Below, piece by piece: positions 1 through 17,502 of a DNA stretch of 24,952 nucleotides. The notes below the pieces were generated by a model. That model saw only the letters and a list, made by a program, of their open reading frames with translations, ran no database searches and was not told the DNA's origin. Position 1 is the stretch's first letter. Every line of letters starts with the position of its first letter. Both the position numbers and the translations under genes were made by a program. Source of the stretch: a virus (lineage: Duplodnaviria; Caudoviricetes). The stretch spans positions 1-24,952 of IMG/VR virus record IMGVR_UViG_3300024042_000004. One strand, given 5' to 3'.

Positions 1-52
1 CAAGTACTCCATACGGAGCCGGTTCGGAGTACAAGGACGACTTGGTAATTAA

Positions 53-81: not shown

Positions 82-107
82 GTCAAATGACACATCTAAA
101 TTTTGGC

Positions 108-886: not shown

Positions 887-894
887 AATGACCT

Positions 895-1014: not shown

Positions 1015-1025
1015 TGCCATCTCCG

Positions 1026-1520: not shown

Positions 1521-1522
1521 TT

Positions 1523-2632: not shown

Positions 2633-2641
2633 AACTATCTC

Positions 2642-3289
2642 CTAATCTACTATTTCTACGAGCGCGGTAACGCCTGCGGCTTTAACCGCCTGAATTAGCG
2701 CATATATGTCATCATCCGTTACCTGGCGGCCTATCAGCGCGGGGCTCCAGAAGTAACTGGTGTTGTTGTAATAAAAATCATTATTTAAAGCGGGGAAATC
2801 TGAGCCGGTTGCCAGGGGTCTAAACACGGTGATAAAAAAGGTGGCTTCATAATCATTGCCATCATGACCGTAATACGTTTCGTTATAATAAGCCGTGTAG
2901 TTATAAGCCCCCGTGTCATTGATATACCACGGCTCAAAAATGAGCGGTTTACGGCCCGTTAAGGTTTCGATAGCCAGACTAATACCCGCCCGCGTTGAGG
3001 GAAACGGTAATAAATTCGCTTTAATGCGGTTTCGGTAGGTGACGTCATCTTCGCCGGGGTGTCGCCGCAGTTTAGTTCCTAAGAAATCTTTGGCAATCAA
3101 ATCTAAATTTTCATCGGTGGCTGTGGCTAAACGCGTTTGTAGCCTGACGTATTGAAGTAAGTCATAGATATAAGCCTGTGTGTTTGCATACGCTGACAGC
3201 ACGCCCTCTAAATTCGGGTTATCATCGCCAAACCAAGGGGGCATAACCGCCAGCAGGCGGCGCAATAAGTCGTCTTGATCACCTTTCAT
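2642..3289 (-). CDS. baseplate wedge protein (P2 gpI/Mu gp48-like)
   Basis: TATDENLDLIAKDF and GEDDVTYRNRIK motifs, C-terminal VKAAG, directly after baseplate J. Confidence 0.75.
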   Translation of the reverse strand: MKGDQDDLLRRLLAVMPPWFGDDNPNLEGVLSAYANTQAYIYDLLQYVRLQTRLATATDENLDLIAKDFLGTKLRRHPGEDDVTYRNRIKANLLPFPSTRAGISLAIETLTGRKPLIFEPWYINDTGAYNYTAYYNETYYGHDGNDYEATFFITVFRPLATGSDFPALNNDFYYNNTSYFWSPALIGRQVTDDDIYALIQAVKAAGVTALVEIVD

Positions 3290-4419
3290 TAAATCACCGT
3301 TGCAGTAACGATAGGCTGGAAGGCCTCTTTAGTAGGAATTGTTATATTGGAAGTGGCACCATTTATGAGTACGTTTGCAATATCTAAAACGCCTGCGGAG
3401 GCATTTTTGGCATACGCCCAGATATAGGAATAGCGTAGCGTATCGCCCATATTGAGGTCATTTACATAGTCCGTAATGGCTTTCTCGACAGCTGCCTTTA
3501 CTTCTGTGCTGCCATAGCCTGGCGCTTTTGTGATAGTTAACGTAATGGTTACGGTATCAATAATCGGAGGATGAACTTCAAATCGTATGCCGCAGGCTCT
3601 TGTAGCATCCACTGCGTTTGTAACATCACCCAAAAGCTGAGCAGATGGGCTGCCGGACTTGTCGTCCACCACCACATAAAAATATCCTTTACGGGCGGCT
3701 CCCGTGGCATAGTCAATATGCTCGATAATGACGTATTCGAGCCCATTCTGGACATTTTCAATAGCTGACTTGATAGCCTGAACACTAGCCTTGGCCAGCC
3801 CGCCGAGATAATCGATAAACCGTGAGCGCAGGGCTTCGTCGCTCTCAACATCCTGCCCACTGGCAAAAGCCGTCGTATTGGTAACGGTATCAATGCTTGG
3901 GATACCTTGTAATATGGTATTGATTTCGCCGATGCCCACATTCCCCGCTGCGCCTGGTACATCTGCATGAACGGGGACGGAAAGGCTTGCTGTGCCGGCG
4001 GGCAGTACGTAGCCGCCCAAGCTTTCGCTATAATTAGGATGGCTAGGGTCTATGACAACAGAGAAAACTTGCGCCCCATTGGCGGTCTCTACCTTTGCGC
4101 TAAAGGGCACCACAGCTTGCAAGGTTGCAGTAAAGCGTGAGAAGGTAACGTTGCCCACAGCAGCTACCGCAGGGAGCCTTGTTAGGCCGAAGTCCTGAAC
4201 AAAGGTGTCAAGGTCAGTACCTGTGCTCGTATAGGCACGGGTAGCGGCCAATACTTTTTGTATTTCGCCTTGCTGCCATAATGTTTGCATGGCGTTTGAC
4301 TCAAGGATGGCCCGCAAGATGGCGCCGACCGATAAGTCGACAAGGGCCTTGCTTTTGGCTTGGATGGCCGTTGCCTGGTCTCTTAAGAGGGTTTCATTGC
4401 TTTTTAAGTCGAGGGCCAT
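3289..4419 (-). CDS. baseplate J-like protein
   Basis: ATRAYTSTGTDLD, GAAGNV, GQDVESDEALRSR motifs, 376 aa. Confidence 0.9.
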   Translation of the reverse strand: MALDLKSNETLLRDQATAIQAKSKALVDLSVGAILRAILESNAMQTLWQQGEIQKVLAATRAYTSTGTDLDTFVQDFGLTRLPAVAAVGNVTFSRFTATLQAVVPFSAKVETANGAQVFSVVIDPSHPNYSESLGGYVLPAGTASLSVPVHADVPGAAGNVGIGEINTILQGIPSIDTVTNTTAFASGQDVESDEALRSRFIDYLGGLAKASVQAIKSAIENVQNGLEYVIIEHIDYATGAARKGYFYVVVDDKSGSPSAQLLGDVTNAVDATRACGIRFEVHPPIIDTVTITLTITKAPGYGSTEVKAAVEKAITDYVNDLNMGDTLRYSYIWAYAKNASAGVLDIANVLINGATSNITIPTKEAFQPIVTATVI

Positions 4420-4790
4420 TATTTACTCACTTGAAAATTAAGGGTTACAATCTGGCTGCTGGCTACTTCGGCATACTGGATAAAGCAAGCCAAGCCGTCT
4501 AAGGTCGGCGTTAGCTGAATAATGGGCGAGGGAGATTTGCTAACACTGGTTTCATTGAACATTTGCGTGGTGATAATGGCTTTTATCTGCTTCTCAAGCG
4601 CCAGCGATAATGGCAAGCCAACATATTGCGCAAGACCTGCGCCATAATCAGGGTGTGCAATATAGCTGCCTGGTGGTGTTAATAGTCTGCGTATAATGCG
4701 TTGTTGCGCGGTTTCGCGGTCAGATGCAAGCAATAGGTCGCCCGTAACCCCGGCTTTTAGGTCATTGCCATAATTGTGATAAATGTCCAT
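4419..4790 (-). CDS. baseplate sheath initiator (gp25/gpW-like)
   Basis: QRIIRRLLTPPGSYIAHPDYGAGL motif, between spike and J. Confidence 0.8.
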   Translation of the reverse strand: MDIYHNYGNDLKAGVTGDLLLASDRETAQQRIIRRLLTPPGSYIAHPDYGAGLAQYVGLPLSLALEKQIKAIITTQMFNETSVSKSPSPIIQLTPTLDGLACFIQYAEVASSQIVTLNFQVSK

Positions 4791-4799
4791 GAAATATCC

Positions 4800-5468
4800 T
4801 TAGAGAGGTGCGCTGGGTCCGCTGGTGTTGCTGCCACCGGACTGTACGCCGCCGTGGGTGTGTTCGTTATAATTGTCGCGGATATGCTGAACAGTACCCT
4901 TGGCGGCATTCTTGTCGCTGATATCGCCCGTTACTAGCAAATCGCCCGTGATTTTGGTATTGCCTGTAATATCCCAGCTTGCGGCCGTGGCGGTTACATT
5001 GCCGCCAGCGTTCAGCATAACATTCCCTGTTGTGGTGATATGAAGCTCGGGGGTTGTGACGTCAATTTCAACTTTTCCATTTAAAGCCACTTTTCCATCA
5101 TTGGTAAGCTTTAGAAAGGAGCCTGTTTTATGGACCAGCCAGCACTCGCCCGCGGGGACCGATAAAGGGCGTTCGACATCATTAAAATTAAGGCCAATTA
5201 CAATACCGTCGTTATAGGAGCCTTCTTGGAAAATCACAAGGCACTCATCGCCAGGGCTTGGCGGGGTGAGTAGCCCCCAGCCATTGCCTATCCACTGACT
5301 GGCAATGGGTAAAGGTTGAGTAAGTGTACCCTCGGGCATTAACGCCACTCTTGCCGTGTAATCATTGGGGTTATAGTTTTTAACAATTCCCTTTTTAGCC
5401 ACAGATTGAAAGCCTTGCATAAGGCTAGCCTGGGCTCGCATATGATTTGCTAAGTGATGCGTGCTCAT
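4800..5468 (-). CDS. baseplate central spike (P2 gpV-like)
   Basis: OB-fold region (PSPGDECLVIF), beta-helix-like repeats, HxH apex (NEHTHGGVQSG). Confidence 0.9.
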   Translation of the reverse strand: MSTHHLANHMRAQASLMQGFQSVAKKGIVKNYNPNDYTARVALMPEGTLTQPLPIASQWIGNGWGLLTPPSPGDECLVIFQEGSYNDGIVIGLNFNDVERPLSVPAGECWLVHKTGSFLKLTNDGKVALNGKVEIDVTTPELHITTTGNVMLNAGGNVTATAASWDITGNTKITGDLLVTGDISDKNAAKGTVQHIRDNYNEHTHGGVQSGGSNTSGPSAPL

Positions 5469-6571
5469 ACTAAAACGGTGCTCTCGGTTGAATGGTTTTT
5501 AGCTGTAATGGTCATTTTATAGCCCTCATCCAGGCTCATGCGCCGTGTAATGGCGTCAGGGTAAAAGATTTGGTCAAACCCTGTGGCTGTCCCTTTGAGT
5601 TGAATAATGTTATCTACGGTTAAAATATTATCGGCGGGCAATTCTGCATACAGCCTTACCTCGTGCGCAGTGATGTCTTTTAAGAGTTGCTGGGCTTTTT
5701 GCAGGGCCTGCTCGGCCGTTAAGTTGGGGAAAATGTAACTGTATTGCTGAACCCCGGGGTCTCGCTTACCTTTTTTGTTGCGGATAGAGCGAGCCGTCTT
5801 TGTAAAGCCCTTCTTTTGCTTTGAGTTCCAGCTATGCACTTTCACAATCACATCTTTAGCCAGTGTGAGGCTGCGCGAGAGCTTGAGAGCCATGCCGTTA
5901 TAGCGCGGATAAGCACTTGTTGTATCGGGCGCCTGCCATTCGAGCAGATAAGGATTATCGCTGGGTTCTGGCAAGGGCTGGAAATAAAGGGTGTCGCCTT
6001 TAACAAAGACGCTAAATTGTTCTTGGTTAGCGAGGAAAGTTAGCAAGTCCCATTCAGTATGCTGGTTCGTGGTTAGCGTTTGCGTTATCGCGTAGAACTT
6101 GCCGACTTTCGTGCTGGTCGTAATGACAAATGATTTAAGATTACGCCGTGATGCTAACTTTTGGGCAATTTGTGAGGCCGTGAGATTATCAAAGCCTTCG
6201 GTTGTTTTGTTATCAATAAAACGGGCAACTAGATTACGGCCTGATAAGACAATCAGGGAGCGCTCAGGGTCATATTCAACTTCGTCCGCTTCGCCCAAGA
6301 TGAGGCTTTTTAAATCGGTGTTGCTGTAATTGTCGGGGTCGTTAGGGAACCCTGCAAAGATTTCAATAAGCAAGGGGGATGTGCTGGCCCAATAATGAGG
6401 CGTTAGGCTATCGTCTTGGCCGCTAATGGGCAGCTCCACCCGAAAGGTGTCTGCTTGATAGTGATTGTTATTGGTGACCTCAAAGCTAATCCAGCTCACG
6501 GGTACCTCGTTAATCACAACCATGCCGCGGGGCTGTCTGCCAAAGGATACTGCCGGAACCTCATTTAGCAT
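5465..6571 (-). CDS. baseplate hub protein (P2 gpD/Mu gp44-like)
   Basis: 368 aa, EWDLLTFLA..F.VFVKGDTLYF, position between LysM-like and spike genes. Confidence 0.8.
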   Translation of the reverse strand: MLNEVPAVSFGRQPRGMVVINEVPVSWISFEVTNNNHYQADTFRVELPISGQDDSLTPHYWASTSPLLIEIFAGFPNDPDNYSNTDLKSLILGEADEVEYDPERSLIVLSGRNLVARFIDNKTTEGFDNLTASQIAQKLASRRNLKSFVITTSTKVGKFYAITQTLTTNQHTEWDLLTFLANQEQFSVFVKGDTLYFQPLPEPSDNPYLLEWQAPDTTSAYPRYNGMALKLSRSLTLAKDVIVKVHSWNSKQKKGFTKTARSIRNKKGKRDPGVQQYSYIFPNLTAEQALQKAQQLLKDITAHEVRLYAELPADNILTVDNIIQLKGTATGFDQIFYPDAITRRMSLDEGYKMTITAKNHSTESTVLV

Positions 6572-6872
6572 TTAAAATGCCTCCCGAGGATTGTGCGGCT
6601 TTCTTAGGAATAACAAGCTTGTTAATGCCTTCTAAAAAAGGGTCTATCAGCCCATTGGCCTCGGCAATTTGTGTCCATAACGTATGGTCGCCATATTCTT
6701 TGGCCGCAATGGAGAATAAATCGCCATTAATGACGGTAATCACTTTCGCATTCGGTGCTGCATTGATAAGGGCTAAGTTAGCTTTAATGCGACCAAGCTT
6801 GGCTTGCAGTAAATACAAGTTGTGCAGTGTGGTTAGCTCGTCGGCTATAACGTTATTGGGTAGTGTGGTCAT
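6561..6872 (-). CDS. LysM-like baseplate protein (P2 gpX-like)
   Basis: VINGDLFSIAAKEYGDHTLWTQIAEANGLIDP...LVIP LysM-like pattern. Confidence 0.8.
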   Translation of the reverse strand: MTTLPNNVIADELTTLHNLYLLQAKLGRIKANLALINAAPNAKVITVINGDLFSIAAKEYGDHTLWTQIAEANGLIDPFLEGINKLVIPKKAAQSSGGILNAK

Positions 6873-7068
6873 TATGGCTTAGCTTATAATTTATATAATT
6901 GTTTAGTGCAGGCACCATCTCGTGAACGAGTAGAGACAAGCCCCACAAGATGAGAAATAAGCAAATTCCTTTAGAAACCCGTTCCTTTTGTTTACGCGAT
7001 AACTCTTTGCTCATCATAAAAACCGCTAGTATTTTGAAAAATGCACTTGGGATGTTAAAATTGTCCAT
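6853..7068 (-). CDS. small membrane protein of antisense cassette A
   Basis: 71 aa, TM GICLFLILWGLSLLV, SD AGGAGG 9 nt upstream of ATG. Confidence 0.7.
   Translation of the reverse strand: MDNFNIPSAFFKILAVFMMSKELSRKQKERVSKGICLFLILWGLSLLVHEMVPALNNYINYKLSHNDHTTQ
7034..7061 (+). promoter_or_regulatory. promoter of antisense RNA A
   Basis: TTGAAA (7034-7039), 16-nt spacer, extended -10 TGtTAAAAT (7053-7061). Confidence 0.6.
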
Positions 7069-7176
7069 AGCAATTGCCTCCTGTTTAGGTAATTGACGCG
7101 CCTTCGGTAATTGGGTTTACGCGAAGGCATAAAAAAAGCCCTCAAAGGTTGCTGCCAATGAGGGCTTTGTTGTTTT
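7069..7176 (+). ncRNA. putative antisense small RNA, copy A
   Basis: CAATTGCCT-cctgttt-AGGTAATTG; GCCTTCG GTAA-ttgggt-TTAC g CGAAGGC; AAAGCCCTCA...TGAGGGCTTT. Same architecture as copies B and C. Confidence 0.65.
7131..7176. terminator. potentially bidirectional intrinsic terminator
   Basis: 10-bp stem AAAGCCCTCA/TGAGGGCTTT. A7 on the left (U7 for minus-strand RNA) and TTTGTTGTTTT on the right. Confidence 0.65.
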
Positions 7177-7261
7177 CAGGGGATTTGTTTTATTGTTTCA
7201 AATTCAATTTTTGTGTCAATACGCTACATGCAAATAGTGGGTACAAAATGGCCCCATTATT

Positions 7262-7882
7262 TTAAAACAAGTTTTTTGATAACGCGCTAATGGCCGAGCC
7301 AACTTGGCTTTGTGCCTGACTTAAAGGCCTCAATATATTATTAACCACAGGCTGCGTAACATCCTTTAGCCCTGGCAATACCTTTGCAGCATCATTAAGC
7401 AACGAGGTAGCCGTGCTGATTGAGGGATTGCGGATAGCGTCGGCTATGTCCATGGCATCTTGAATATCGCGCATAATATCGTCAATAAAGTTGCCTAAGG
7501 GTGAAGACCTAACGGGGTCTGTCAGATTTTCGATAACCAGCAAGGATAGCGTATAGGGCACTTTGTTAGAGCGCTGAAATTGCGCCTCAAAGGATTTTAT
7601 AAGTACTGTGTAATAAAACTCACCGTACTGGAAATCTAGTGGTTGCCCATCACTTCGGAGCGTGTCTAAAAATCTTGCCCTATCGACAGCCCCATCACCA
7701 AAGAACAAGCCGCTCCATGAAATCATGCTTTCGCTACGACCCATGGCATCGACCACACGCTCACCGCCGACCATTTCATGTACGGCACAGCGTTGCTCAC
7801 CACCAAAGTTAATGCTCTCGGGCAATTCGTGGGTTTGAAACTCAAAATCACCGAGCTGTACTTTTATTCTGAGACTTAGCAT
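7262..7882 (-). CDS. tail tube initiator (P2 gpU-like)
   Basis: LGDFEF..ELPESINFGGEQRCAVHEMVGG.RVVDAMG, directly after tape measure. Confidence 0.7.
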   Translation of the reverse strand: MLSLRIKVQLGDFEFQTHELPESINFGGEQRCAVHEMVGGERVVDAMGRSESMISWSGLFFGDGAVDRARFLDTLRSDGQPLDFQYGEFYYTVLIKSFEAQFQRSNKVPYTLSLLVIENLTDPVRSSPLGNFIDDIMRDIQDAMDIADAIRNPSISTATSLLNDAAKVLPGLKDVTQPVVNNILRPLSQAQSQVGSAISALSKNLF

Positions 7883-7883
7883 A

Positions 7884-9881
7884 TTAGCGCGCCATGTTCA
7901 TGCCGGGTTGTATAGAGCCAACTCTTGGGTTGACTGAAGACGTACCCGTTTGCGGCTTGTTAAGCTCATTGACTTGGTACATTGTTACGCCTTCAAAAAG
8001 CTTTCTGCCGTCAACATCAAACCGGCTATGCAATTGGATAGCTTGTTTTTGTGCTGAAGCTGGAGGTGGCACGGTAATTTGAGTAGGCATACCAAAGCCT
8101 GAAGGAAGCATTGGCATAGAGTTTCTGCCGGAGCTCTTTGCTGTAGAGTCGAACATGTCGTTTGCGGCTTTAGCTCCAGAAGTGTCATAAATCTTTTTGA
8201 CAATCTTGCCACCATAATTTAAAGCCGCATCCTTTTTTTGGCCTGCAGTTGCATCTTTATCAGAAAAGGTTTCGAGTAATTTTGCTGTGGTGTCAAGAAA
8301 GCCTGTGAGCCTATCCATTGCATTTAAAATAGCTGGCGATGTAAATTTCCCAAGAGCTGTTTCAAATCTATTTAGTGCCTCTGTTAAGGCTTTTTCACTT
8401 CCGGTTGGTATGCTTAAGGCTTTTTTAAAGCTCTCATCTACACCCATAGCCTTTGGACTTACCTTGGCTGATAAAATAGCTTTCTCTAGTGATACATCAA
8501 TAAGCCCCGCCAATGCGGCTCCTGTTCTATTGCCAAAATCGTAATTAATCTCATTAAGAATATCTTTTTTAGCGGTTATGCCATGCTTTGCAAGCTGCGG
8601 TAAATAAACACCTTCGAACCAGGCTACAACATTATTACTTAATGCATCACTACCTAGGACGGCACCAGGAAGAACTTTTTTAATAGAGCCAACTTTATTA
8701 TATTTTAGTTTTGTTTTATCAAGTATACCAAGCTCGGATAAACGCTCGGCTGTTGATTGCGTCATGCTTCCGCTTTGAAGCTGACGCTGAATTGAGGTTA
8801 GTCCAGTGCCCGCACGATGACCGCCCGCTTCTTGAATAATAGGTTCGAGCATATAGAATGTATCAAGAGCCATATTCTTTGCGGCAATGCCTCCTGTCTG
8901 CATAAAGTTTAAGAATTGCGTAGGAAGCACACGGCCACCAGATGAACTGATTACTTTTTGAAAAGTGTCTAAAACAGGCTTGAGCTTTTCGGGGTCTTTT
9001 GTGCCCAAGTACATTTCTGCGGCTCGAACTAGGTCTCTATTTTGAGCATGATTATAATTAGGGATTATTGAAGAATTTGCAAACTCCGCTCTTGCTAACA
9101 TTGGTGCTATCTTTTCTGCTGCCACAGGGTCTTTCAATACCTGAGCCGCATCTGTAAGAGATTTTAATAGGGAAGTTGGTGAAATGCCTTTTTCTTGATT
9201 GCTAAAAGCAAATCTAACAGCTCTTTCTCTAGCTGAATCACCAAAGCCCATAAGATCAAATTGCGCAAGCGTTTTCTGATACTCTTTATCTGCCTGGTAT
9301 GAGCCTTTTACGGTATTATAAGCTCCATATGCGGCGGCGCTAATAGCTATAGAGCCGGGGTTATATCCAAAGGGCCCAAGATGCATATTTCTAGCATGAA
9401 CACTTGCGCCTCCCCCTTCTGGCGCAGATTTTCTGCCCTTTGAGATTGCTCCGCCAATAGTCCTGGAATGGGCCGTCGCTGCGTTCAATCCTTCCATATT
9501 AGCGCTAAGCTGCCTAACCTTTGCTGATAAAGCATCCACTTTAGCTATTGACGATGCTGTTTTAATATTAAATTTATCAAATCGATTGATTGAGCTTAAA
9601 GTTCTATCGCCTAACGTGGAAAAAGAATTATTAAGCGAATTTAACGCACTTTTAGACCCGTATAAGGCTTCCCGAAATGCGTGCATTTTGGGGTTTAATT
9701 TGCCTGTTAACTGATCTAGCCGTGTGATTTGATCATTAATTGGCCGTAAACGCTTGTTAAGGACCTCAAGAGCTTCGTTGGTTCGCCTAATGGCACGCCA
9801 AAAGCTTTGTAGTTTTTTCTCAGCATCGCCTGTAATAGTGATACGCGTTGCTATAGCATACGCTTCTTCAAAATGTGCCAT
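7884..9881 (-). CDS. tail tape measure protein
   Basis: 665 aa, helical Ala/Lys/Ser-rich, N-terminal coiled coil, C-terminal DVDGR motif, position before baseplate genes. Confidence 0.8.
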   Translation of the reverse strand: MAHFEEAYAIATRITITGDAEKKLQSFWRAIRRTNEALEVLNKRLRPINDQITRLDQLTGKLNPKMHAFREALYGSKSALNSLNNSFSTLGDRTLSSINRFDKFNIKTASSIAKVDALSAKVRQLSANMEGLNAATAHSRTIGGAISKGRKSAPEGGGASVHARNMHLGPFGYNPGSIAISAAAYGAYNTVKGSYQADKEYQKTLAQFDLMGFGDSARERAVRFAFSNQEKGISPTSLLKSLTDAAQVLKDPVAAEKIAPMLARAEFANSSIIPNYNHAQNRDLVRAAEMYLGTKDPEKLKPVLDTFQKVISSSGGRVLPTQFLNFMQTGGIAAKNMALDTFYMLEPIIQEAGGHRAGTGLTSIQRQLQSGSMTQSTAERLSELGILDKTKLKYNKVGSIKKVLPGAVLGSDALSNNVVAWFEGVYLPQLAKHGITAKKDILNEINYDFGNRTGAALAGLIDVSLEKAILSAKVSPKAMGVDESFKKALSIPTGSEKALTEALNRFETALGKFTSPAILNAMDRLTGFLDTTAKLLETFSDKDATAGQKKDAALNYGGKIVKKIYDTSGAKAANDMFDSTAKSSGRNSMPMLPSGFGMPTQITVPPPASAQKQAIQLHSRFDVDGRKLFEGVTMYQVNELNKPQTGTSSVNPRVGSIQPGMNMAR

Positions 9882-10353
9882 AACCGTGTTCCAATTGTTT
9901 TAAACTTTCGCTTTTCAACCATAGCCGCACAGATTGGGCTACAATCTTTTTAATTTTGTCTCTATTTTCAAACATAGCCGCACCTAGCACAGGTCTTGGC
10001 GGAATATGATTGGTTCCAAGCTCTTGGTAAGCCATAATTGGATTTTTGGAGCCCACAAATACTGAGTTTGTTACAACAGAAAATTCTATTGACTCCATCA
10101 GCTCTCCGCTTCTATAAAGCGGATCATTAGGAGAATAGCCTTCCCTCTGACGCTGCTCTTGAGTAGCGTCTTTTAACTCAGCCCATTCCTCAAAAAGACC
10201 ATGGTCTGGCTGATAATGACCGAATTTTCTTTTGCTTGCATCTTGTATGAATTTACCGAGAATAGTCAGAGTTGCTTTTTTGTAGATAGCTTCGCTGGCA
10301 ATCACTTTTTTAATATGATTGCCAAATTCTTCAAAGGTTTTAAATTCTTTCAT
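9868..10353 (-). CDS. virion morphogenesis/tail completion protein (HK97 gp10 or Mu gpG-like)
   Basis: PLYRSGELMESI, YQELGTNHIPPRPVL motifs. Confidence 0.8.
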   Translation of the reverse strand: MKEFKTFEEFGNHIKKVIASEAIYKKATLTILGKFIQDASKRKFGHYQPDHGLFEEWAELKDATQEQRQREGYSPNDPLYRSGELMESIEFSVVTNSVFVGSKNPIMAYQELGTNHIPPRPVLGAAMFENRDKIKKIVAQSVRLWLKSESLKQLEHGYGTF

Positions 10354-10937
10354 TCGTAATAGGTAAAGTGCTTCGCAACCCGCTGTAGCTTGTCTGTATT
10401 AAAATTATCCCAATTTATCTTATCGTAAAGGGGCCGGGTAAATTCAAAAGAAAAAACTTTTATTTGCTTAGGATTGCCATAATCATCCGAGTCATCAATA
10501 TAGCCTATAATTTTAATCTTATCTGTTGAAGGTTCGTTATATAAATCCCTTGTAATTATGCCTGCGAAGTATAGTAGCATTAACCCTGTAATTTCAGGTC
10601 TGTCAGATATTGGATCAAAATTTTTACTAACAGTAATTTTCCCCTGGCTTATGAAGTTTGGCAAAGTCTCAATTGCTTCGTTCTGGCTTACTGAAACTAT
10701 ATATGAATCATCCGAATAATTTTTATGAACGCTAAAACCAGGGTATAGGTCTCTATTTACCTGTAATATATTATCTATTCTCTCTTTGGGAGTAATTATT
10801 TTTTGTTGTTGATTTTCAGGTTTAGTCCCATTGTCCGTGGAGGATTCGCCTTCATTTGAATAGTGAGAAAATCCCATAAAGAATATTGAAACGATTATTA
10901 TGCATACTACAAAAGCTGCTTCTTTAGCCCTAGACAT
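10350..10937 (-). CDS. N-terminally membrane-anchored hypothetical protein (moron)
   Basis: TM AAFVVCIIIVSIFFMGF, polar linker, globular domain, AT-rich, SD GAGGAG. Confidence 0.75.
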   Translation of the reverse strand: MSRAKEAAFVVCIIIVSIFFMGFSHYSNEGESSTDNGTKPENQQQKIITPKERIDNILQVNRDLYPGFSVHKNYSDDSYIVSVSQNEAIETLPNFISQGKITVSKNFDPISDRPEITGLMLLYFAGIITRDLYNEPSTDKIKIIGYIDDSDDYGNPKQIKVFSFEFTRPLYDKINWDNFNTDKLQRVAKHFTYYE

Positions 10938-11054
10938 AACATAATTACTCCTCAGTTAATAACTAAGGCATCATAAGCCAATTTATCCAATTCGAGCAAG
11001 CTTTAGGGAAATTCCCGATGGCAAAAAATCTTTGCCATTATCACATAATAAATG

Positions 11055-11095
11055 TTGTAATCACTGTAAAACCATCTATAATACATATTATATCA
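11055..11095. promoter_or_regulatory. overlapping promoters and palindromic operator (hicAB and moron)
   Basis: Plus: TTGTAA-16-TATAAT (11055-11082). Minus: TGaTATAAT (11095-11087). Palindrome TATAATA-ca-TATTATA (11077-11092). Confidence 0.65.
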
Positions 11096-11112
11096 TGTGC
11101 AAGGCGCTTTAA

Positions 11113-11298
11113 ATGGACGGCAAAACAGTAATTAAAATCTTAGAACAAAATGGCTTTAAATGTGTCCGTATCAACGGCAGTCATCATATTATGCAGAATG
11201 GCCAGCTATCAGTTCCCGTGCCCGTCCACAGTAAGCATGACATTAAAATCGGCACGCTTAAAAATATTGAAAAAAGATCTGGAGTAAAATTAAAATGA
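11113..11298 (+). CDS. hicA: HicA family mRNA interferase toxin
   Basis: 61 aa, LEQNGF..VRINGSHH..VPVPVH...I.IGTL.NI. Confidence 0.92.
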   Translation: MDGKTVIKILEQNGFKCVRINGSHHIMQNGQLSVPVPVHSKHDIKIGTLKNIEKRSGVKLK

Positions 11299-11732
11299 GC
11301 GAACTTAAATTAACCTACTTTGCAAATCTTGCTGACGCTGAAGAAGGCGGATATATCGTGACCTTCCGGGATTTGCCCAATGTTTTTACAGAAGGCGACA
11401 CCCTTGAAGAGGCTCTTTTTAATGCCCAAGAAGTGCTAGATGGCATGCTTGCAGTAATGTCATCCAATAACGAGGAAATAAACGATCCATCTCCTGGGCA
11501 AGATGGTGAATACCCTATCCCCGTTAGTCCTGATATAGCTGCGCCTATATTATTACACTTGTTACGTAAAAAACGCTCTCAAACGATGGCTAATGTGGCT
11601 AGAGCAATGAGCATACCTTACCAACAGTACCAAAGGCTTGAGCATAATTGTAATATGACTTTAAAAAGTCTCAATAAAGCCGCTGTTGCAATGGGCGCCC
11701 GTGTTGAAATTAGAGTTTATTTAAATGACTAG
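11295..11732 (+). CDS. hicB: HicB family antitoxin with C-terminal HTH
   Basis: EEGGYIVTFRDLPNVFTEGDTLEEALFNAQEVL, Xre-type HTH (TMANVARAMSIPYQQYQRLE), ATGA overlap with hicA. Confidence 0.92.
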   Translation: MSELKLTYFANLADAEEGGYIVTFRDLPNVFTEGDTLEEALFNAQEVLDGMLAVMSSNNEEINDPSPGQDGEYPIPVSPDIAAPILLHLLRKKRSQTMANVARAMSIPYQQYQRLEHNCNMTLKSLNKAAVAMGARVEIRVYLND

Positions 11733-11762
11733 AGCAACCCTGAATATGCGCTCTTGCCCTAA

Positions 11763-11870
11763 TTAGCTTTGGAGCAATAAAGCACTTACTACAGCAAATG
11801 CGACTAAGCTTATAGCCACAAATGCTATCAAGCAGTCACGGTTAATTTGTTTGTCTATTGGGTTGTTCAT
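11763..11870 (-). CDS. 35-aa single-TM peptide (not in ORF track)
   Basis: Hand translation MNNPIDKQINRDCLIAFVAISLVAFAVVSALLLQS. Weak SD (GGGT), 15 nt after the previous stop. Confidence 0.5.
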   Translation of the reverse strand: MNNPIDKQINRDCLIAFVAISLVAFAVVSALLLQS

Positions 11871-11885
11871 GATTTTACCCAATAT

Positions 11886-12014
11886 TTAATGAATAAATTC
11901 TTTAACAATTAAAGCAATTGGCAATGCTGCTATTCCAAAACCGATTAGCAAAGCTACTCTACACATCGTAGTAACCATTTTATCTTGCTGATTTTCTGTT
12001 AATTTTCCGCTCAT
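11886..12014 (-). CDS. 42-aa single-TM peptide (not in ORF track)
   Basis: Hand translation MSGKLTENQQDKMVTTMCRVALLIGFGIAALPIALIVKEFIH. SD GAGGT upstream. Confidence 0.65.
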   Translation of the reverse strand: MSGKLTENQQDKMVTTMCRVALLIGFGIAALPIALIVKEFIH

Positions 12015-12031
12015 AATTACCTCTTTCATAC

Positions 12032-12241
12032 TTACGATTTTTTTATTTTTTCTTTCGCCTTATAATCGAAATAATCTTTAAGCAAAGGTGCGATCCCATT
12101 CAATAACCACTTAATTCCCAAACAAGTTGCAGGTATCAGTATTGATAGACTGATTGCCGTAATTGCAAAGCTACTACTTGGCATCTGTATCATTACCTCT
12201 CTAAAAGAGTGAAAAAATAAAACGATTTTGTTATCATTCAC
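12032..12241 (-). CDS. small membrane protein of antisense cassette B
   Basis: GTG start with SD AAGGAGGT, TM FAITAISLSILIPATCLGIKWLL, internal GAGGT SD before Met20. Confidence 0.7.
   Translation of the reverse strand: MNDNKIVLFFHSFREVMIQMPSSSFAITAISLSILIPATCLGIKWLLNGIAPLLKDYFDYKAKEKIKKS
12209..12237 (+). promoter_or_regulatory. promoter of antisense RNA B
   Basis: GTGAAA, 17-nt spacer, extended -10 TGtTATCAT (12229-12237). Confidence 0.55.
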
Positions 12242-12243
12242 TT

Positions 12244-12335
12244 ATGATTACCTCCTTTATAGGTAGTCAACACGCTATCGGTGGTGGTACACGCGATAGC
12301 ATTAACCCCAAAGCTTATTGCTCTTGGGGTTTTTT
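12244..12335 (+). ncRNA. putative antisense small RNA, copy B
   Basis: GATTACCT-cctttat-AGGTAGTC; GCTATCG GTG-gtggta-CAC g CGATAGC; terminator AACCCCAA...TTGGGGTT-TTTT. Confidence 0.7.
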
Positions 12336-12531
12336 ATTTTTGTTCTTCAAACTGAAAGTTAGCCCAGTTAAATTTGGCGCCACGAAATTCAGAAAAGCAT
12401 ATTGAGAAGGCCGTCACAAAGTAACTTGGCATTTCGCCTTGCCAAGGCTTTTCTTGGCCATACACCGCGTCCCAAGGCATGCGGTTATAGATTAACCAAG
12501 CACGCTCCTTAAACTCAGGAGCGGTAGCTAT
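12334..12531 (-). CDS. -1 frameshift extension of tail assembly chaperone (gpGT-like C-terminus)
   Basis: 65 open codons in the -1 frame after A AAA AAA: IATAPEFKERAWLIYNRMPWDAVYG...FSEFRGAKFNWANFQFEEQK. Confidence 0.8.
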   Translation of the reverse strand: MATAPEFKERAWLIYNRMPWDAVYGQEKPWQGEMPSYFVTAFSICFSEFRGAKFNWANFQFEEQK

Positions 12532-12537
12532 TTTTTT
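12503..12537 (-). other. programmed -1 ribosomal frameshift signal
   Basis: Slippery A AAA AAA (12537-12531), 7-nt spacer, hairpin CGCTCCT-gagttta-AGGAGCG (12523-12503). Confidence 0.8.
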
Positions 12538-12905
12538 ATTAAATCTTTCTCCTGCTGTTCATTCTCTTCGGTCTCTTGGCCAATGAGCTGCATGATGCCC
12601 TCTAAAATAGCCTGATGGCCTTCATAGCCTAAGCGTTGAATAAGAGCCTCTAATTCGCGTTCGCTATTTTTCGTCACTGGAGATCCATCAATAGCTGATA
12701 CCCAGTTATAAATGCTAATTTCTTTAAGATAGACGTCATTGCTAGAATTATCGCCGAGTATTTTAATAAAGCGGAATTTCTCAAGGATTGGTGGCCTTCT
12801 AACTGTAATGATGCGTCCTAAAGAGTCCTTTATGTCTGCTTTTTCAGCCTGCACGACTTGCGATGGTGTATCACCTTGTAAAATTTCTACTTTTGGTTTT
12901 TGCAT
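12528..12905 (-). CDS. tail assembly chaperone (gpG-like)
   Basis: 125 aa, downstream of tube gene, acidic C-terminus ending IKK on a slippery site. Confidence 0.8.
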   Translation of the reverse strand: MQKPKVEILQGDTPSQVVQAEKADIKDSLGRIITVRRPPILEKFRFIKILGDNSSNDVYLKEISIYNWVSAIDGSPVTKNSERELEALIQRLGYEGHQAILEGIMQLIGQETEENEQQEKDLIKK

Positions 12906-12921
12906 TTTTTAACCCTTTTAC

Positions 12922-13095
12922 TTATGTTAAGAATAATTTTATAAAATCTGTTAGAGCATGAATGATGCTGGGCAACGAATAGATAAAGACCACAGTAATA
13001 ATAGTATTGGCCCATTTAGCCGAATGCTTTTCGCTGCCTGCTAATTTCATGATGAATTCTTTATATTTAATATAGGTTTTGCTATGATTATTCAT
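12922..13095 (-). CDS. 57-aa membrane peptide of antisense cassette C (not in ORF track)
   Basis: Hand translation MNNHSKTYIKYKEFIMKLAGSEKHSAKWANTIITVVFIYSLPSIIHALTDFIKLFLT. SD-like AGGCAGGT. Confidence 0.65.
   Translation of the reverse strand: MNNHSKTYIKYKEFIMKLAGSEKHSAKWANTIITVVFIYSLPSIIHALTDFIKLFLT
13060..13088 (+). promoter_or_regulatory. promoter of antisense RNA C
   Basis: TTTATA, 17-nt spacer, extended -10 TGcTATGAT (13080-13088). Confidence 0.6.
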
Positions 13096-13179
13096 ATGAT
13101 TACCTGCCTTTTAGGTAGTCTTCGCTCTCTCGGTGCGCTAACACGCGAGAGAACTAAGCCCCTTCGCTGGGGCTTTTTT
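13096..13179 (+). ncRNA. putative antisense small RNA, copy C
   Basis: GATTACCT-gcctttt-AGGTAGTC; TCTCTCG GTG-cgctaa-CAC g CGAGAGA; terminator AAGCCCC-ttcgct-GGGGCTT-TTTT. Confidence 0.7.
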
Positions 13180-13181
13180 AT

Positions 13182-13616
13182 TTATGCTAACTTCTGCTTT
13201 CTAGCAGCTTCAAAGCTAATACGCTGGGTCACAGCCGTATCACGTGCGAATGAACCACCATCATCCAATGACAGTCTTACACCTGTATAAATGTACTGAC
13301 TGATAGAGCCGTCGGCCTCAACAATGGTTTCTGTGATGCTTGCCTCTGGCAAATTCTCGCCGCGATAAAAAGCAGCCTCTTGCGCAATAAAATAATCCAT
13401 GACTTTTGGATTATTACGCTCAATGTCACAAGAGCCTGACCAGCCCTCGTAGAAGATTTGATTAACGCTGGGTGAGTCGATGGGCTTAATGCGATTTTTA
13501 GCCACGTCTTGCTTGGCATTGAAATTAGTAATCCCTATTCCAAAATCGACGGCCCCATTTTGATCGTAAAAATGTAGTGTAATATCCTGGCCTGTTGCGT
13601 AACCTGAACTTGGCAT
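13182..13616 (-). CDS. tail tube protein
   Basis: 144 aa, beta-rich, immediately after sheath. Confidence 0.8.
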   Translation of the reverse strand: MPSSGYATGQDITLHFYDQNGAVDFGIGITNFNAKQDVAKNRIKPIDSPSVNQIFYEGWSGSCDIERNNPKVMDYFIAQEAAFYRGENLPEASITETIVEADGSISQYIYTGVRLSLDDGGSFARDTAVTQRISFEAARKQKLA

Positions 13617-13626
13617 TTTAAACTCC

Positions 13627-15159
13627 TTATTGAACGGTCACTTGGCCCGTTTGTAAATTCACTAAGAACACGCGGATAGTTCTCAAATAAGCAACCTGCA
13701 CGTCAGCCTGCATATAGCCTAATGCCACACGGCTTGAGGGGTTGTTTGAGACATCCAAAATCACTTTAAAGGCGGGTCCGCCGTTCACATCACCAATCAT
13801 GCCTTGTTGCTCAAGATTACTGAGAAACGTTTGTAATGCGGTCTTAGCTTCTAATCGTGTCGCCGTGTTTTGTAATCTGCCCACAAACTTGCCGAGGCCT
13901 TGGTTTAAGGTGTAAGCGATATAGTTGGTTAAGCGGCAGTACTCATCGGTATTAGTCAGCGCGTTAGAACTGGTGCTTTGACCTAAGCGGGCGGCAAAAT
14001 AATCACCACCGGGTGATGGGTTAACAATGACGTCAATGCCGGCTTGCGAGAGCTGTACGATTTCCGCATCAGAGTACACTTTATGCTTGTAGCTGCTCTG
14101 GGTACCTAAAATACCTAGCACAGGCTGATTTAGGCTTGAGCGCTCAGGCGATAGATTGGCTAATCGACCCGAAATAACGCCTTGCGGACTAACTAGGCGT
14201 ACTTGGTTGTTTTGGGTATCTTGGAAATAAACCCAGTCACCTAGCATCAATTTAGCACTGTAGTTATCAATGCCTACTGTCTGCTTAGCCGTAATCGCAG
14301 CTGAGATAGTCTGTCCTGCGGGGCCTGTTAAAATCATATAGGCGCCTTCGGAAAGACCAAAAGCTAATTGGGCGCTATAAGTGGCTGAGTCGTCACAATC
14401 GCTGAGCATTACAATGCTTACGCCCGTATTTCGCAGCGCATACATACCGGCCCGCGGCGTCGTATCTGAGCCTACCAATCGAGTATCGAGAATTGAGCTA
14501 TTTCCATCCGCGCCACCTGCCAAGGTATAGCTAGCAAGCGCTGGGGCCGCAGTGCCTGCACCTAAGGTTGCGGTAACCAGCCCCGAGGGGCCTTGTGCGG
14601 CCTGGCCATTATTGATGGCGTTCACGATATTTTGCCAGAGTGCGTTACCTGTTCCGCCGATGTTGTCATAGACCTCTGGCAGACCGTTGGGTAAGGATAC
14701 TGTGATCTTATAGGTTGGACTGGCGGTGATTGAGTTAGTGCCAGCGCTCACTGTGGCCTTAACATTATTGCCATAGGTGCCCGTATACTTTGCAGTTAAT
14801 ACCATGCCTATAGCAGGCGTGCCCGCTGTATCCATAATGTTCTTTGTAGCGGCTGCATCCGTGCCATCGGTTACCCGAACGCAGCGTATGTTGTTAGCAA
14901 AGTTAGCGCACGCCAAGTTAACGGCCGTGCCCAAATCATGCTTTAAGGTCAGCATGGGCCCAAATTTTTGTTGATACTCATCCATGCTGCTGATGGTGAC
15001 GGGCGAATTAACGGGACCCCAAGAGGCTATACCTACAATGCCCAGGATATTGGTTGGCACGCCATTTAATAGCGTTTGTGACGGCGGCAATATTTGCACA
15101 TAAACATTCGGTGCATTTATGCTCGTGGTATTAAATGTTCCAGCTTGTATGACGGGCAT
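13627..15159 (-). CDS. contractile tail sheath protein
   Basis: APNVYVQI, GIVGIASWGPVNSPV..S..EY...FG, VRVTDG, AKYTGTYGN, sheath-type C-terminal domain. Confidence 0.93.
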   Translation of the reverse strand: MPVIQAGTFNTTSINAPNVYVQILPPSQTLLNGVPTNILGIVGIASWGPVNSPVTISSMDEYQQKFGPMLTLKHDLGTAVNLACANFANNIRCVRVTDGTDAAATKNIMDTAGTPAIGMVLTAKYTGTYGNNVKATVSAGTNSITASPTYKITVSLPNGLPEVYDNIGGTGNALWQNIVNAINNGQAAQGPSGLVTATLGAGTAAPALASYTLAGGADGNSSILDTRLVGSDTTPRAGMYALRNTGVSIVMLSDCDDSATYSAQLAFGLSEGAYMILTGPAGQTISAAITAKQTVGIDNYSAKLMLGDWVYFQDTQNNQVRLVSPQGVISGRLANLSPERSSLNQPVLGILGTQSSYKHKVYSDAEIVQLSQAGIDVIVNPSPGGDYFAARLGQSTSSNALTNTDEYCRLTNYIAYTLNQGLGKFVGRLQNTATRLEAKTALQTFLSNLEQQGMIGDVNGGPAFKVILDVSNNPSSRVALGYMQADVQVAYLRTIRVFLVNLQTGQVTVQ

Positions 15160-15161
15160 GC

Positions 15162-15320
15162 TTAACTCTCCCTGGTATAAACTTTAACGACATGGTCAGC
15201 ATGGGTTGCTAGCACATCATCAATGATTTTTTTATCGGTAATTTCATCGCCTCGGCGGTAATCGCCAAACGCCTCTTGCACCACAAGCTTTATGCTGTGG
15301 ATTTTTGTTTTTTCAGTCAT
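15162..15320 (-). CDS. 52-aa hypothetical protein preceding sheath (not in ORF track)
   Basis: Hand translation MTEKTKIHSIKLVVQEAFGDYRRGDEITDKKIIDDVLATHADHVVKVYTRES. Fills the intergenic gap exactly. Confidence 0.7.
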   Translation of the reverse strand: MTEKTKIHSIKLVVQEAFGDYRRGDEITDKKIIDDVLATHADHVVKVYTRES

Positions 15321-15332
15321 GGGTTTGTCTCT

Positions 15333-16127
15333 CTAGGTGGGGGTAATACTGTTAACAAAGGGGTGGTTAATGGTGTAATCAGTTTCGGTTTGTGTGGTGG
15401 TGTAATCCACGGCGTAACGCAGGTCACGTCGATAAATAAGCGGCTTTTGTAATTGGTCTTGCTCAGAGGCTCCGCGATAACTTAGCGCGGCATAAAACCC
15501 GTCAGGCATCATCATCCGCTGTGCTGCAGTTAAGGCTATTTCAATGGCATTGCTTACCGTTTCGCGTAAGGCAAAGTTAGGGGCCCAGGTTGTTATCATA
15601 AACACGCGCTCTTGGCTTTTAATCGGCCTTGTGCTTGTGCCTGCCGTGTTAATTCTGGCAATTACACTGTGGGCGCCTGTAATAGTAATAACAGAGCCTG
15701 TAGTCTCCGCGCCTGGAATGAGAGCCGCTAATGCAGCGGCGATGCTCTCAGGCGTATCGCTTGGCTGGATGGCGTACGCGTAAGGCGTACCGTTAACGAT
15801 GAGCATGCAGGCAGAGGGCGTTGAGATTGCGCCACCTAGCGTTACCGTGTTATTAACAACAGTTGCGGTGAGCGTTATAGGCGCCATAGGTCCATCGTAC
15901 CAAACCCTGGCATAGCGTGTTGTGCTACGCTCCATGTTATTGACGGGGTAAATAGACACAAATACCTTGCCCTCTGACAGCGCCGTATTTAGCGCATTGG
16001 CATCAGGCCAGCCGCTTACTATGGTAATATCGGTGCCCGCAATAGAGGCTTGCCCAGTTCCATCGGGATACAATGCAGAGGCCGCGAGGCCGCCTATAGC
16101 ATTCATAACATCCGTTAAGCTTGCCAT
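15333..16127 (-). CDS. putative tail terminator/completion protein
   Basis: Position before sheath. GWP, ITTWAP..ALRE and YRRDLRY.VDY pattern. Confidence 0.6.
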   Translation of the reverse strand: MASLTDVMNAIGGLAASALYPDGTGQASIAGTDITIVSGWPDANALNTALSEGKVFVSIYPVNNMERSTTRYARVWYDGPMAPITLTATVVNNTVTLGGAISTPSACMLIVNGTPYAYAIQPSDTPESIAAALAALIPGAETTGSVITITGAHSVIARINTAGTSTRPIKSQERVFMITTWAPNFALRETVSNAIEIALTAAQRMMMPDGFYAALSYRGASEQDQLQKPLIYRRDLRYAVDYTTTQTETDYTINHPFVNSITPT

Positions 16128-16765
16128 TAGGCACCTACCTTGCTTAGTGTTAAGCGCCAGCCCAGGTCGGTTAGCTCATCACTGCTTACGATATAGCGCG
16201 CACCTTGCTCATCTATCGCCACATCACCGGTTTTAAGTGTGACGTTACCCAAGTAAGGCGCCAAGCATTTAAACCAAGGCATCTTGGTATCTTGCGGCAG
16301 TCCTACAGGGTTTTGCTCGCCCTTGCTATTTTCAAGGAGTGACACGGGGCAGGCTTGCATTAATGTGGTTTCTTCGGGGGCTGTGTTGCCGCTATAGCCC
16401 ACATAGCCTTTACCTGTTAAGGCGGCGGGCCTTTTGAAGGTTAATCTTGCATTGCACTCTACGCCTAAGATGGGCAGTAAGTGCTGCATGCCTGCAATAA
16501 AGAATGTTTGATCACCAACTAGATAATCAAAGCGCTGAATAGCTCTACCGTCGGTCACTAATTGCCATACTGCATTGCCGTATTTATTGGCCTTGGTGTA
16601 TTCCCAGTTAATATTGGCGCTGGCTAGTACATTCCCTTGTACGTTACCAGCATTGATAGGCTCAATTCCTGTTGTTGAGCGATACACGGTGAAACTTGAA
16701 CCGATACGAAACGCAGCTTTACCATAGCCCTTATAAACCAATTGCTGTAAACGGCTGCCATCCAT
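16127..16765 (-). CDS. putative head closure/neck protein
   Basis: Gene order, C-terminal GDVAIDEQGARYIV beta-barrel-like motif, TAATG coupling. Confidence 0.55.
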   Translation of the reverse strand: MDGSRLQQLVYKGYGKAAFRIGSSFTVYRSTTGIEPINAGNVQGNVLASANINWEYTKANKYGNAVWQLVTDGRAIQRFDYLVGDQTFFIAGMQHLLPILGVECNARLTFKRPAALTGKGYVGYSGNTAPEETTLMQACPVSLLENSKGEQNPVGLPQDTKMPWFKCLAPYLGNVTLKTGDVAIDEQGARYIVSSDELTDLGWRLTLSKVGA

Positions 16766-17145
16766 TATACGACTACCCTAATCCCACCCTGGCCTAAATC
16801 AGGGCCGGGAGGCACGCCCAGAAATCCACACAAGCGCCTACGCCAATTATCAAATAATTGCTCACGGTCTCTTGCTTCGCTCCGGTTACGCTCCCAAATG
16901 GCAGCCTTGTCAGTGTCTAAATTATCCCGCACGCTCACAATATCACTCTCAAGCTGCGAAAGATTGGCAAGATAGCTAGCCTTAACCACTGCCTCTTCGC
17001 TTGATTGCATATTATTGAGCTTATATTCAAGGTTTCCATACCAGGTAAAAAAACGATAGCCAAAACCTTGTGTAGGCTGTGCGCCAAATACGGGATAACC
17101 GCAATAACGACGAATGGCCGTCTTTTCAGCATCGGTAAAGGCCAT
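16765..17145 (-). CDS. putative head-tail adaptor
   Basis: 126-aa helical protein two genes after the capsid gene. Confidence 0.55.
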   Translation of the reverse strand: MAFTDAEKTAIRRYCGYPVFGAQPTQGFGYRFFTWYGNLEYKLNNMQSSEEAVVKASYLANLSQLESDIVSVRDNLDTDKAAIWERNRSEARDREQLFDNWRRRLCGFLGVPPGPDLGQGGIRVVV

Positions 17146-17149
17146 AGTC

Positions 17150-17500
17150 TTAGCTCAAATAGCGAATGGGGGCTTGATTATCAATTAAGTGCTTAATAGT
17201 CTCTGGATTAGCGACCACCTGCCCCTCCCTAAAATGCTTGGTCACGCTGGCATCCTGGCCAGGCATTCTTAATACCAAAACATAATTGCTTAGCATTAAG
17301 ACTTCGCTTGGCGCTGCTGGCTGAACATCTTTGACGGCATCACTTTCTGGCATATCGCCATGAACATCAGTGGGTTTTTCCAGGGCAGCATCTTGTGCCG
17401 CCTGCTCGTTTCCGGCAGATGCTTGCACTTCTTGCTCAATTGGACTTTGAGGAGCAGTACCTGCCTGCTCCTGTTGTTTTCCTTTGTTTGTAATAGCCAT
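17150..17500 (-). CDS. hypothetical protein (disordered N-terminus) after capsid gene
   Basis: ORF tightly packed between MCP and adaptor. Confidence 0.7.
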   Translation of the reverse strand: MAITNKGKQQEQAGTAPQSPIEQEVQASAGNEQAAQDAALEKPTDVHGDMPESDAVKDVQPAAPSEVLMLSNYVLVLRMPGQDASVTKHFREGQVVANPETIKHLIDNQAPIRYLS

Positions 17501-17502
17501 GA

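Follow-up and report, generated by a model that had tools for sequence, protein, structure and literature searches.

The DNA examined here is a 24,952-nt stretch of the viral record IMGVR_UViG_3300024042_000004 (the window), which covers the late region of a myovirus-like temperate prophage. Its genes for terminase, portal, capsid, sheath, tube and baseplate lie on the minus strand. The same phage is also represented by a longer record, which is identical wherever the two were compared and adds an integrase, a repressor and a Cro-like gene; in it a gene for a Q-like antiterminator (phrog_79, E 1.4e-6) directly precedes the late genes. The closest sheath relatives in GTDB are 55-56% identical, and the integrase and nuclease matches are distant. 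At three sites among the tail genes we found cassettes in which a minus-strand open reading frame (ORF) for a small hydrophobic peptide faces a plus-strand promoter motif within its first codons and a structured element over its Shine-Dalgarno (SD) sequence. The predicted antisense RNAs of cassettes 1, 2 and 3 would span 7067..7178 (ends inferred), 12243..12340 and 13094..13184, respectively, all on the plus strand. A related prophage, L005, carries one cassette at site 1 and another at site 3 but lacks one at site 2, giving five copies in two phages.

The core of the element, TCGGT-N8-10-ACGCGA, occurs three times in the window (at 7104, 12278 and 13130), always on the plus strand, where shuffled sequences gave 0.02 by chance and none of 100 shuffles reached three, in line with the initial annotation of three copies of one architecture. 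As plus strands the copies fold into three hairpins (z of -4.4, -6.3 and -5.3 for copies 1, 2 and 3; none of 200 shuffles was as stable). Hairpin 1, which carries the anti-SD sequence, lies at 7071-7095, 12245-12269 and 13098-13120, and hairpin 2 at 7100-7128, 12274-12300 and 13126-13152. Hairpin 3 lies at 7135-7168 in copy 1, at 12304-12331 in copy 2, where it is terminator-like and followed by a U run, and at 13156-13175 in copy 3, where it abuts the stop codon of the tail tube gene. The minus strands fold about equally well overall (z of -4.5, -6.8 and -6.1), and a bias towards the plus strand is confined to hairpin 1. Hairpin 1 was more stable on the antisense strand in all five copies (-7.9, -9.0, -10.0, -5.4 and -5.5, against -3.7, -3.9, -3.9, -3.8 and -5.0 on the mRNA strand), and a G.U pair that works only in the antisense RNA was found in each, at three different positions and not at one fixed position. 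The outer stem of hairpin 2, described at first as fully compensated, varies in only three of its seven pairs, and one inner pair varies as well; six of the ten pairs and the bulged G are invariant across the five copies. As a terminator, hairpin 3 was flagged by the scan on the plus strand in copy 3 but not in copies 1 and 2. In cassettes 2 and 3 the U runs are confined to the antisense strand. Copy 1 has its uninterrupted U7 run on the minus strand, which is the late direction, and does so in both phages; the U run on its plus strand is broken.

The small hydrophobic ORFs of the three sites encode 71, 69 and 57 aa, each with one hydrophobic 19-mer (Kyte-Doolittle 2.0, 2.1 and 1.75), as had been annotated. 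There is not one ORF at every site, since cassette 2 heads three hydrophobic peptide ORFs, and L005 has two per site. The ORF of cassette 1 (6853..7068, minus strand) gives 71 aa from its upstream ATG and has in-frame Met codons 18 and 19. In cassette 2, the first ORF (12032..12241, minus strand) gives 69 aa from a GTG, with Met codons at 17 and 20, the latter behind a good second SD (-12.6 kcal/mol for the first SD and -7.3 kcal/mol for the second); it is followed by a second ORF (11886..12029, minus strand) of 47 aa, or 42 aa from its second Met, that is homologous to the cassette 1 and L005 peptides, and by a third of 39 aa (11763..11882, minus strand). The ORF of cassette 3 (12922..13095, minus strand) encodes 57 aa, with an in-frame Met at codon 16. 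Long forms of 57-71 aa would become 42-54 aa from the second Met, with a net charge of +3 to +4. In its short form, the first cassette 2 peptide resembles L005 peptides and Pseudomonas 'MPxSxF' peptides. The peptides form two loose groups, and the cassette 1 peptide, judged by sequence, seems to combine the two as a chimera. No named family for them was found in Pfam, NCBIfam, PHROGs, PADLOC or the atlas, where matches fell below its bar.

In all five copies a second in-frame Met, which the initial annotation did not mention, follows the upstream start by 15-19 codons, and the leader between the two holds the antisense promoter motif. The upstream SD lies inside hairpin 1 and is strong in all five (-7.3 to -12.6 kcal/mol); as for the second SD, that of cassette 2 is good and that of one L005 copy is moderate (-6.5), and the remaining three copies have weak ones. 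The leader is free of stops and in frame in 5 of 5 copies despite its differing length (chance 0.06-0.10 per copy, the copies not being independent of one another). A homologue from a third source, P0008 (E 3e-6, known as a protein only), retains the leader, and no locus for it was found in the viral collection; another candidate homologue, P0009, was rejected as a repetitive chance match. Two side observations concern these frames. In cassette 2 an out-of-frame ATG four bases past the GTG opens a 14-codon frame (12195-12237, minus strand) whose stop overlaps the codon-17 ATG, and this small ORF may offer an alternative coupling of ribosomes to the second start. In L005, the site 3 element has upstream of it an extra 41-aa hydrophobic ORF (10450-10575), whose stop codon adjoins the terminator hairpin.

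A plus-strand, sigma-70-like promoter motif with TG before the -10 was present at every site, as the initial annotation had said. The predicted promoter of cassette 1 (7034..7061; -35 at 7034-7039, extended -10 at 7053-7061) matches the consensus at 10 of 12 positions and lies inside codons 3-12 of the peptide ORF; those of cassette 2 (12209..12237, extended -10 at 12229-12237) and cassette 3 (13060..13088, extended -10 at 13080-13088) each match at 9 of 12. Between 5000 and 16000 we counted 24 promoter-like sites, where chance would give 22.5; only four of them bear the TG, and the three cassette promoters are among these four. The extended -10 is kept in the L005 orthologues of cassettes 1 and 3, and thus in 5 of 5 copies. 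Short inverted repeats of unrelated sequence were also seen in the promoter regions (window 13062-13074 and 12216-12232; L005 10677-10692 and 15272-15281), except in that of cassette 1.

Signals for a dedicated transcript of the peptide strand bear on an autonomous toxin-antitoxin (TA) system of type I, in which a stable toxin mRNA would be held by an unstable antisense RNA for prophage maintenance or abortive infection. Type I toxins are small and hydrophobic, generally of under 60 aa and with a transmembrane helix, and the peptides here resemble them in size and hydrophobicity. However, no same-strand promoter was flagged upstream of cassette 3 by the consensus scan (such scans can miss promoters), the only candidate for cassette 2 is a 9/12 site 440 nt upstream, and the possible promoter of cassette 1 (7192..7219, minus strand, 10/12 with TG), which points into hairpin 3, is absent from L005, where only 16 nt are present. 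Likewise, the scan flagged no terminator behind the ORFs of cassettes 1 and 3, and Pfam, NCBIfam and PADLOC gave no match. With no good same-strand promoter in cassettes 2 and 3, ORFs that depend on the late operon and a second start that would escape the RNA, the type I label given initially was not established, and we consider such a system improbable. Metatranscriptomes did not add to this: one run covers the stretch as two long contigs at a flat depth of 13.6-14.3 over genes of both strands without joints, which looks like DNA carry-over and is uninformative on strand, ends and splicing, and in two further runs the stretch was without coverage.

Comparison with L005 showed that the RNA elements have changed far less than their surroundings. 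In eight genes that the two phages share, identity at four-fold sites is 35% (181 of 511), against 97 of 109 positions (89%) in the RNA element of cassette 1 and 78 of 95 (82%) in that of cassette 3. The peptide ORFs share ~51% of their bases, and the peptides behind orthologous RNAs are either swapped or ~24-30% identical. This conservation points to selection on the RNA element, recent exchange of the RNA parts alone at both sites being a less simple alternative. In the alignment of the five copies, 98.9% of cells were paired, six pairs showed double changes and the covariation score was reached in none of 500 shuffles, while controls with slid positions gave 32-42%. The outer stems of hairpin 2 retain their site-specific types in both phages. 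As a separate matter, the two L005 copies of hairpin 1 (10628-10663 and 15230-15265) agree at 30 of 35 positions. This is closer than the agreement of either with its window orthologue, whereas hairpins 2 and 3 remain of their site-specific types; gene conversion is possible.

RNAs conserved at 82-89% next to peptides so different would also fit a reading in which the RNAs act mainly on the whole late mRNA, by RNase III or polarity, either on stray transcripts of the prophage or on the mRNA of a superinfecting relative, with the peptides as passengers. The three sites are spread through the tail operon, the predicted duplexes between phages (cassette 1 with L005 targets and the reverse) range from -26 to -38.5 kcal/mol, and a published description of STnc6030 of BTP1 (PMC7067206) supplies a precedent. 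On the other hand, an incoming phage would be selected to diverge its target and not to conserve it, and the RNA always lies over a strong SD and an in-frame leader, which such an attack does not need. We regard this explanation as unlikely.

The sites themselves were compared with 40 distant loci, consisting of 39 viral loci and Ralstonia phage Hyacinthe. Wherever both the tube and the chaperone gene were matched, in 37 of these loci, the two abut, with an estimated gap of -64 to 71 nt, as against 276 and 426 nt here. Cassette 1 interrupts a tail gene that is a single frame in 26 of the 27 distant loci covering both halves (13 loci did not cover both). Its N-terminal part (7262..7882, minus strand) matches positions 6-200 of the 321 of phrog_21362 and residues 4-203 of a 320-aa Ralstonia phage protein, and its C-terminal part (6561..6872, minus strand) matches positions 233-321 and residues 213-320, respectively. 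In both phages the last peptide ORF contains the first 20 nt of this second half, so that in the window the stop of the cassette 1 ORF overlaps the start of the next gene by 20 nt. The covariance model R1 found no match in the 39 distant viral loci. By these sequence comparisons, all three cassette sites are insertions among prophage tail genes. In addition, the tail gene of one distant phage (L173, 6302-7339) is also divided into two frames, at roughly the position of the break seen here; the RNA model gave no match there.

Pattern scans found the three-hairpin form in two prophages only. The strict pattern had no match in GTDB genomes, three viral scans returned 3, 31 and 69 stretches, with the two known phages accounting for 3, 5 and 5 of them, and a metagenome scan returned 27, of which 8 came from the two phages and 19 were without a model match; these scans do not prove rarity, since exact patterns miss diverged members. 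The remaining viral stretches, among those listed, were judged by eye from their folds to be chance matches; of them, only L010 and L070 were given a model score, which for L070 was 19.5 bits, within a coding sequence. With the five-copy model, neither the window nor bases 1-18000 of the longer record yielded a fourth copy, and in blastn of the elements against phages and plasmids the terminator hairpins alone were matched. The absence of an Rfam assignment was confirmed: the best match in an Rfam 15 covariance-model search of the window was SpF66, with 29.8 of 42 bits, below its gathering threshold; the five copies in short loci gave 11 matches, none reaching threshold; and the cassette regions of the relatives described below gave no match at threshold. 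An integron attC site, an intron and a put element were considered for the RNA element and rejected on geometry.

The element thus still cannot be assigned to a named family, yet its architecture is not confined to this phage. One L005 peptide matches phrog_34597 (E 4.8e-6) and 23 Pseudomonas aeruginosa phage records (best E 5e-3, tblastn), where the gene is located before the endolysin. Phages with cassettes of this kind are PAJU2, PAShipCat1, YMC11/02/R656 and D14H. The layout before the endolysin consists of a terminator, an SD hairpin with a 7-nt loop, a GTG, a 17-codon leader with an antisense -10, a second SD and an ATG, and it lacks hairpin 2; the SD hairpin is far more stable on the antisense strand (-14.9 vs -7.1). 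A paralogue after tail gene K has an extended -10 as in L005, a 12-codon leader and a second peptide behind, and YMC11/02/R656 carries both paralogues. Matches 70-74% identical to this paralogue occur in 104 of 5426 Escherichia coli genomes; the three copies examined lie in the lysis (R-Rz) or baseplate regions of lambdoid prophages and keep the extended -10, leader, second SD and peptide. The second SD is strong in all five Pseudomonas and E. coli copies examined. This layout was reached through the peptide, in Pseudomonas and then in E. coli, independently of the RNA search, and the R1 model did not detect the Pseudomonas copies (best 8.8 bits). Common descent of the window cassettes with those of Pseudomonas and E. 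coli is likely, on the basis of weak peptide similarity and layout. MAFFT aligns the Pseudomonas SD hairpin with hairpin 2 and not with hairpin 1 (five short sequences), and there is a hint that hairpin 2 arose by duplication.

Some further features were seen at these loci. The cassette 2 terminator (12304-12331) and the D14H terminator (L183, 905-945) share their inner three pairs and a 3'-side bulged C, a geometry also seen in hairpin 2. The Pseudomonas lysis-region cassette (L180-L182) and one E. coli copy (L216) lie near an oppositely oriented antirepressor gene, and Rfam matches to C4, c4-a1b1 and isrK were present in the Pseudomonas loci and to sRNA-Xcc1 in L216.

The same relatives bear on whether the RNAs act in trans in the lysogen, as small RNAs (sRNAs) or as protein ligands, with hairpin 2 as the binding site for a protein of host or phage and a secondary role for the overlap with peptide genes. 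The six invariant pairs and bulged G of hairpin 2 in five copies, together with the site-specific outer stems, would fit such binding, and the available text on the Pas sRNAs (10.64898/2026.05.13.724894) describes sRNA genes among prophage structural genes. Since the Pseudomonas and E. coli relatives are missing hairpin 2 and still keep the SD hairpin, leader and peptide, we consider this very unlikely. A combined scheme, in which widespread, mobile, RNA-gated dual-start cassettes gained a protein-recognised hairpin 2 here, so that a lysogen sRNA would control both the peptide switch and the split tail gene and thereby lock particle production, is improbable.

Taking together the insertions, the conserved folds, the two in-frame starts and the promoter motif in the leader, we propose, with confidence slightly better than even, that a host-type promoter in the leader yields an antisense RNA of 90-110 nt, that this RNA occludes the upstream one of two in-frame ribosome-binding sites, and that the long peptide is made only when late transcription outruns the RNA. 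The antisense RNA would be made constitutively in the lysogen, and its anti-SD hairpin would pair with the late mRNA through the 7-nt loop and the 5' end. Stray or early transcripts of the late operon would then be silenced or shifted to a short isoform from the weaker second site, and after induction Q-like antitermination would flood the RNA and release the long isoform. The copies probably act mostly independently, since self duplexes are predicted to be more stable (-46 to -57) than cross duplexes (-15 to -39). Going by gene position and hydrophobicity, the most likely place of action for the peptides is the inner membrane during lytic infection, with a role in exclusion or in the timing of lysis. 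The sar-like SD occlusion suggested by the initial annotation gained comparative support from the extended -10 and the hairpin 1 bias, each in 5 of 5 copies, and from the recurrence of the layout in Pseudomonas and E. coli phages.

Several observations weigh against this proposal. The second SD is weak or nearly absent in cassette 1 (-2.4) and cassette 3 (-0.9), which makes the short isoform doubtful in these two. Folding of the whole element favours the antisense strand in only three of five copies, the E. coli SD hairpin showed no antisense bias in any of the three copies examined, and in the alignment the base of hairpin 2 shows an invariant C.A, which would pair as U.G in the mRNA strand. 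The covariation, drawn from five related sequences of two phages, is support and not proof. In favour of the proposal, a filter for the layout passed 5 of 46, 0 of 331 and 2 of 43 strong-SD starts, the passes being cassettes only, but this control is lenient because the filter was designed after the cassettes had been seen and TAnnAT is rare in the distant loci (3/331). Finally, pure cis-antisense action leaves the exact sequence of hairpin 2 and of the cassette 1 terminator unexplained; the conservation of hairpin 2 is beyond what pairing in cis requires.

Some of these points could instead mean that the working strand is the late mRNA, with the hairpins serving as a terminator, attenuator or processing site until Q-like antitermination, the promoter motif incidental or minor and, in the extreme form, a put-like antiterminator. 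The minus strands fold about as well as the plus strands, the U7 run of cassette 1 lies in the late direction in both phages, and the U.G pair and the unbiased E. coli copies would fit. Against it, an extended -10 stands at the right distance in the five copies, in D14H and in three E. coli copies, the U runs of cassettes 2 and 3 are on the antisense strand only, and the geometry is unlike that of putRNA as described in the available text of PMC9378689. A working mRNA strand seems to us unlikely, and antisense occlusion of the upstream ribosome-binding site is the reading that we favour.

Other features of the window were noted as well. A hicA-hicB type II TA pair (11113-11732, plus strand) adjoins cassette 2 against the late direction, with a consensus promoter at 11055-11082, and is absent from the corresponding site in L005. 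Between hicAB and a neck gene lies an AT-rich gene for 195 aa (10350-10937, minus strand) with an N-terminal hydrophobic stretch that matches phrog_8263 (unknown); L005 has a distantly similar 189-aa gene in the same place. Just 3' of the chaperone stop, a 48-aa ORF (12334-12480) and a hairpin (window 12334-12549) are kept in L005 (11243-11433), and 18 bases at 12527-12544 also match a third phage contig (run X1); the region is possibly a frameshift or second part of the tail assembly chaperone.

Parts of the proposed control have counterparts in known systems. The sar RNA of P22 has two hairpins and its promoter lies inside ant. It is a small cis-encoded antisense RNA of a temperate phage that occludes the ribosome-binding site of ant, according to the available text of PMC7968456 and PMC12197685. 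Whereas sar (RF00262) shares this cis-antisense block with the cassettes, it is 68-69 nt long, targets an antirepressor and occurs in a single copy; here the element is repeated and faces membrane-peptide ORFs. No match to RF00262 was found in the window or the five copies, and one E. coli relative reached 24.3 bits on its mRNA strand, where the threshold is 43. In P22, the lytic PL promoter drives sas, and sieB is transcribed from a promoter of its own. Accessible descriptions (PMC12197685, PMC7067206) give sas as an antisense RNA of ~105 nt that switches translation between sieB peptides in superinfection exclusion. Like sieB-esc, the window cassettes would yield two in-frame products from one gene, the switch being predicted here, and the polarity appears reversed, with a host-type promoter for the RNA and a gene dependent on the late operon.

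Type I TA systems, as far as described in the text of PMC8309996 and PMC5415839, combine a small hydrophobic peptide with a cis antisense RNA over the SD, and include the mok leader of hok/Sok, SymR/symE and the two in-frame peptides of SprG1/SprF1. The cassettes share the small hydrophobic peptide, the predicted cis antisense RNA over the SD, an upstream leader and two possible in-frame peptides; they differ in that no dedicated toxin transcript is evident for two of the three, the leader is an in-frame extension and the family collections searched gave no homology to known toxins. STnc6030, as presented in the available text of PMC7067206, is a 786-nt antisense RNA inside the late genes of prophage BTP1 that is expressed in the lysogen. 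It is single and antisense to coding sequence, whereas the RNAs predicted here are 90-110 nt, intergenic, structured, repeated and tied to micro-ORFs. The putRNA of HK022, in the portion of PMC9378689 that describes it, is ~70 nt, with two long abutting stems and a conserved 5' duplex, downstream of the promoter of an antiterminated operon; compared by eye with that description, the stems here are 4 nt apart, lack a 5' duplex motif and are followed at once by a terminator on the promoter strand. The main text of the Pas sRNA preprint makes no mention of antisense or ORFs. A phage moron sits as an accessory insert among conserved late genes and has its own promoter and terminator for its cargo gene. 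The cassettes share with morons the absence from the syntenic position in related phages and differ in that their promoter and terminator serve the opposite strand, the cargo lying in the late direction.

Further close counterparts are the two-hairpin cassettes of Pseudomonas and E. coli phages, which share the late-operon position, the leader of 12-17 codons and the occurrence of two paralogues in one phage, and are without hairpin 2. A characterisation of them, or a description of this cassette, was not found in the literature searched, which covered few subscription papers; the first residues of the E. coli homologue are not mentioned in the main text of PMC2887945, whose supplementary candidate tables could still list it. 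The control logic is already known from sar and sas, and the dual start, the extra hairpin, the triple use and the gene-splitting insertion are new, in an element that is real, selected and outside Rfam; its three-hairpin form is an RNA motif under strong selection with no known partner. If the proposal is true, small membrane proteins of the late operon stay silent or in short form until lysis proceeds, which would account for a common unannotated feature of lysis and tail regions and could be tested in cultured phages of P. aeruginosa. One portable RNA switch absent from Rfam would then be shared by temperate phages of several gammaproteobacteria, and control of the sar and sas type would go from single textbook loci to a repeated mobile module.

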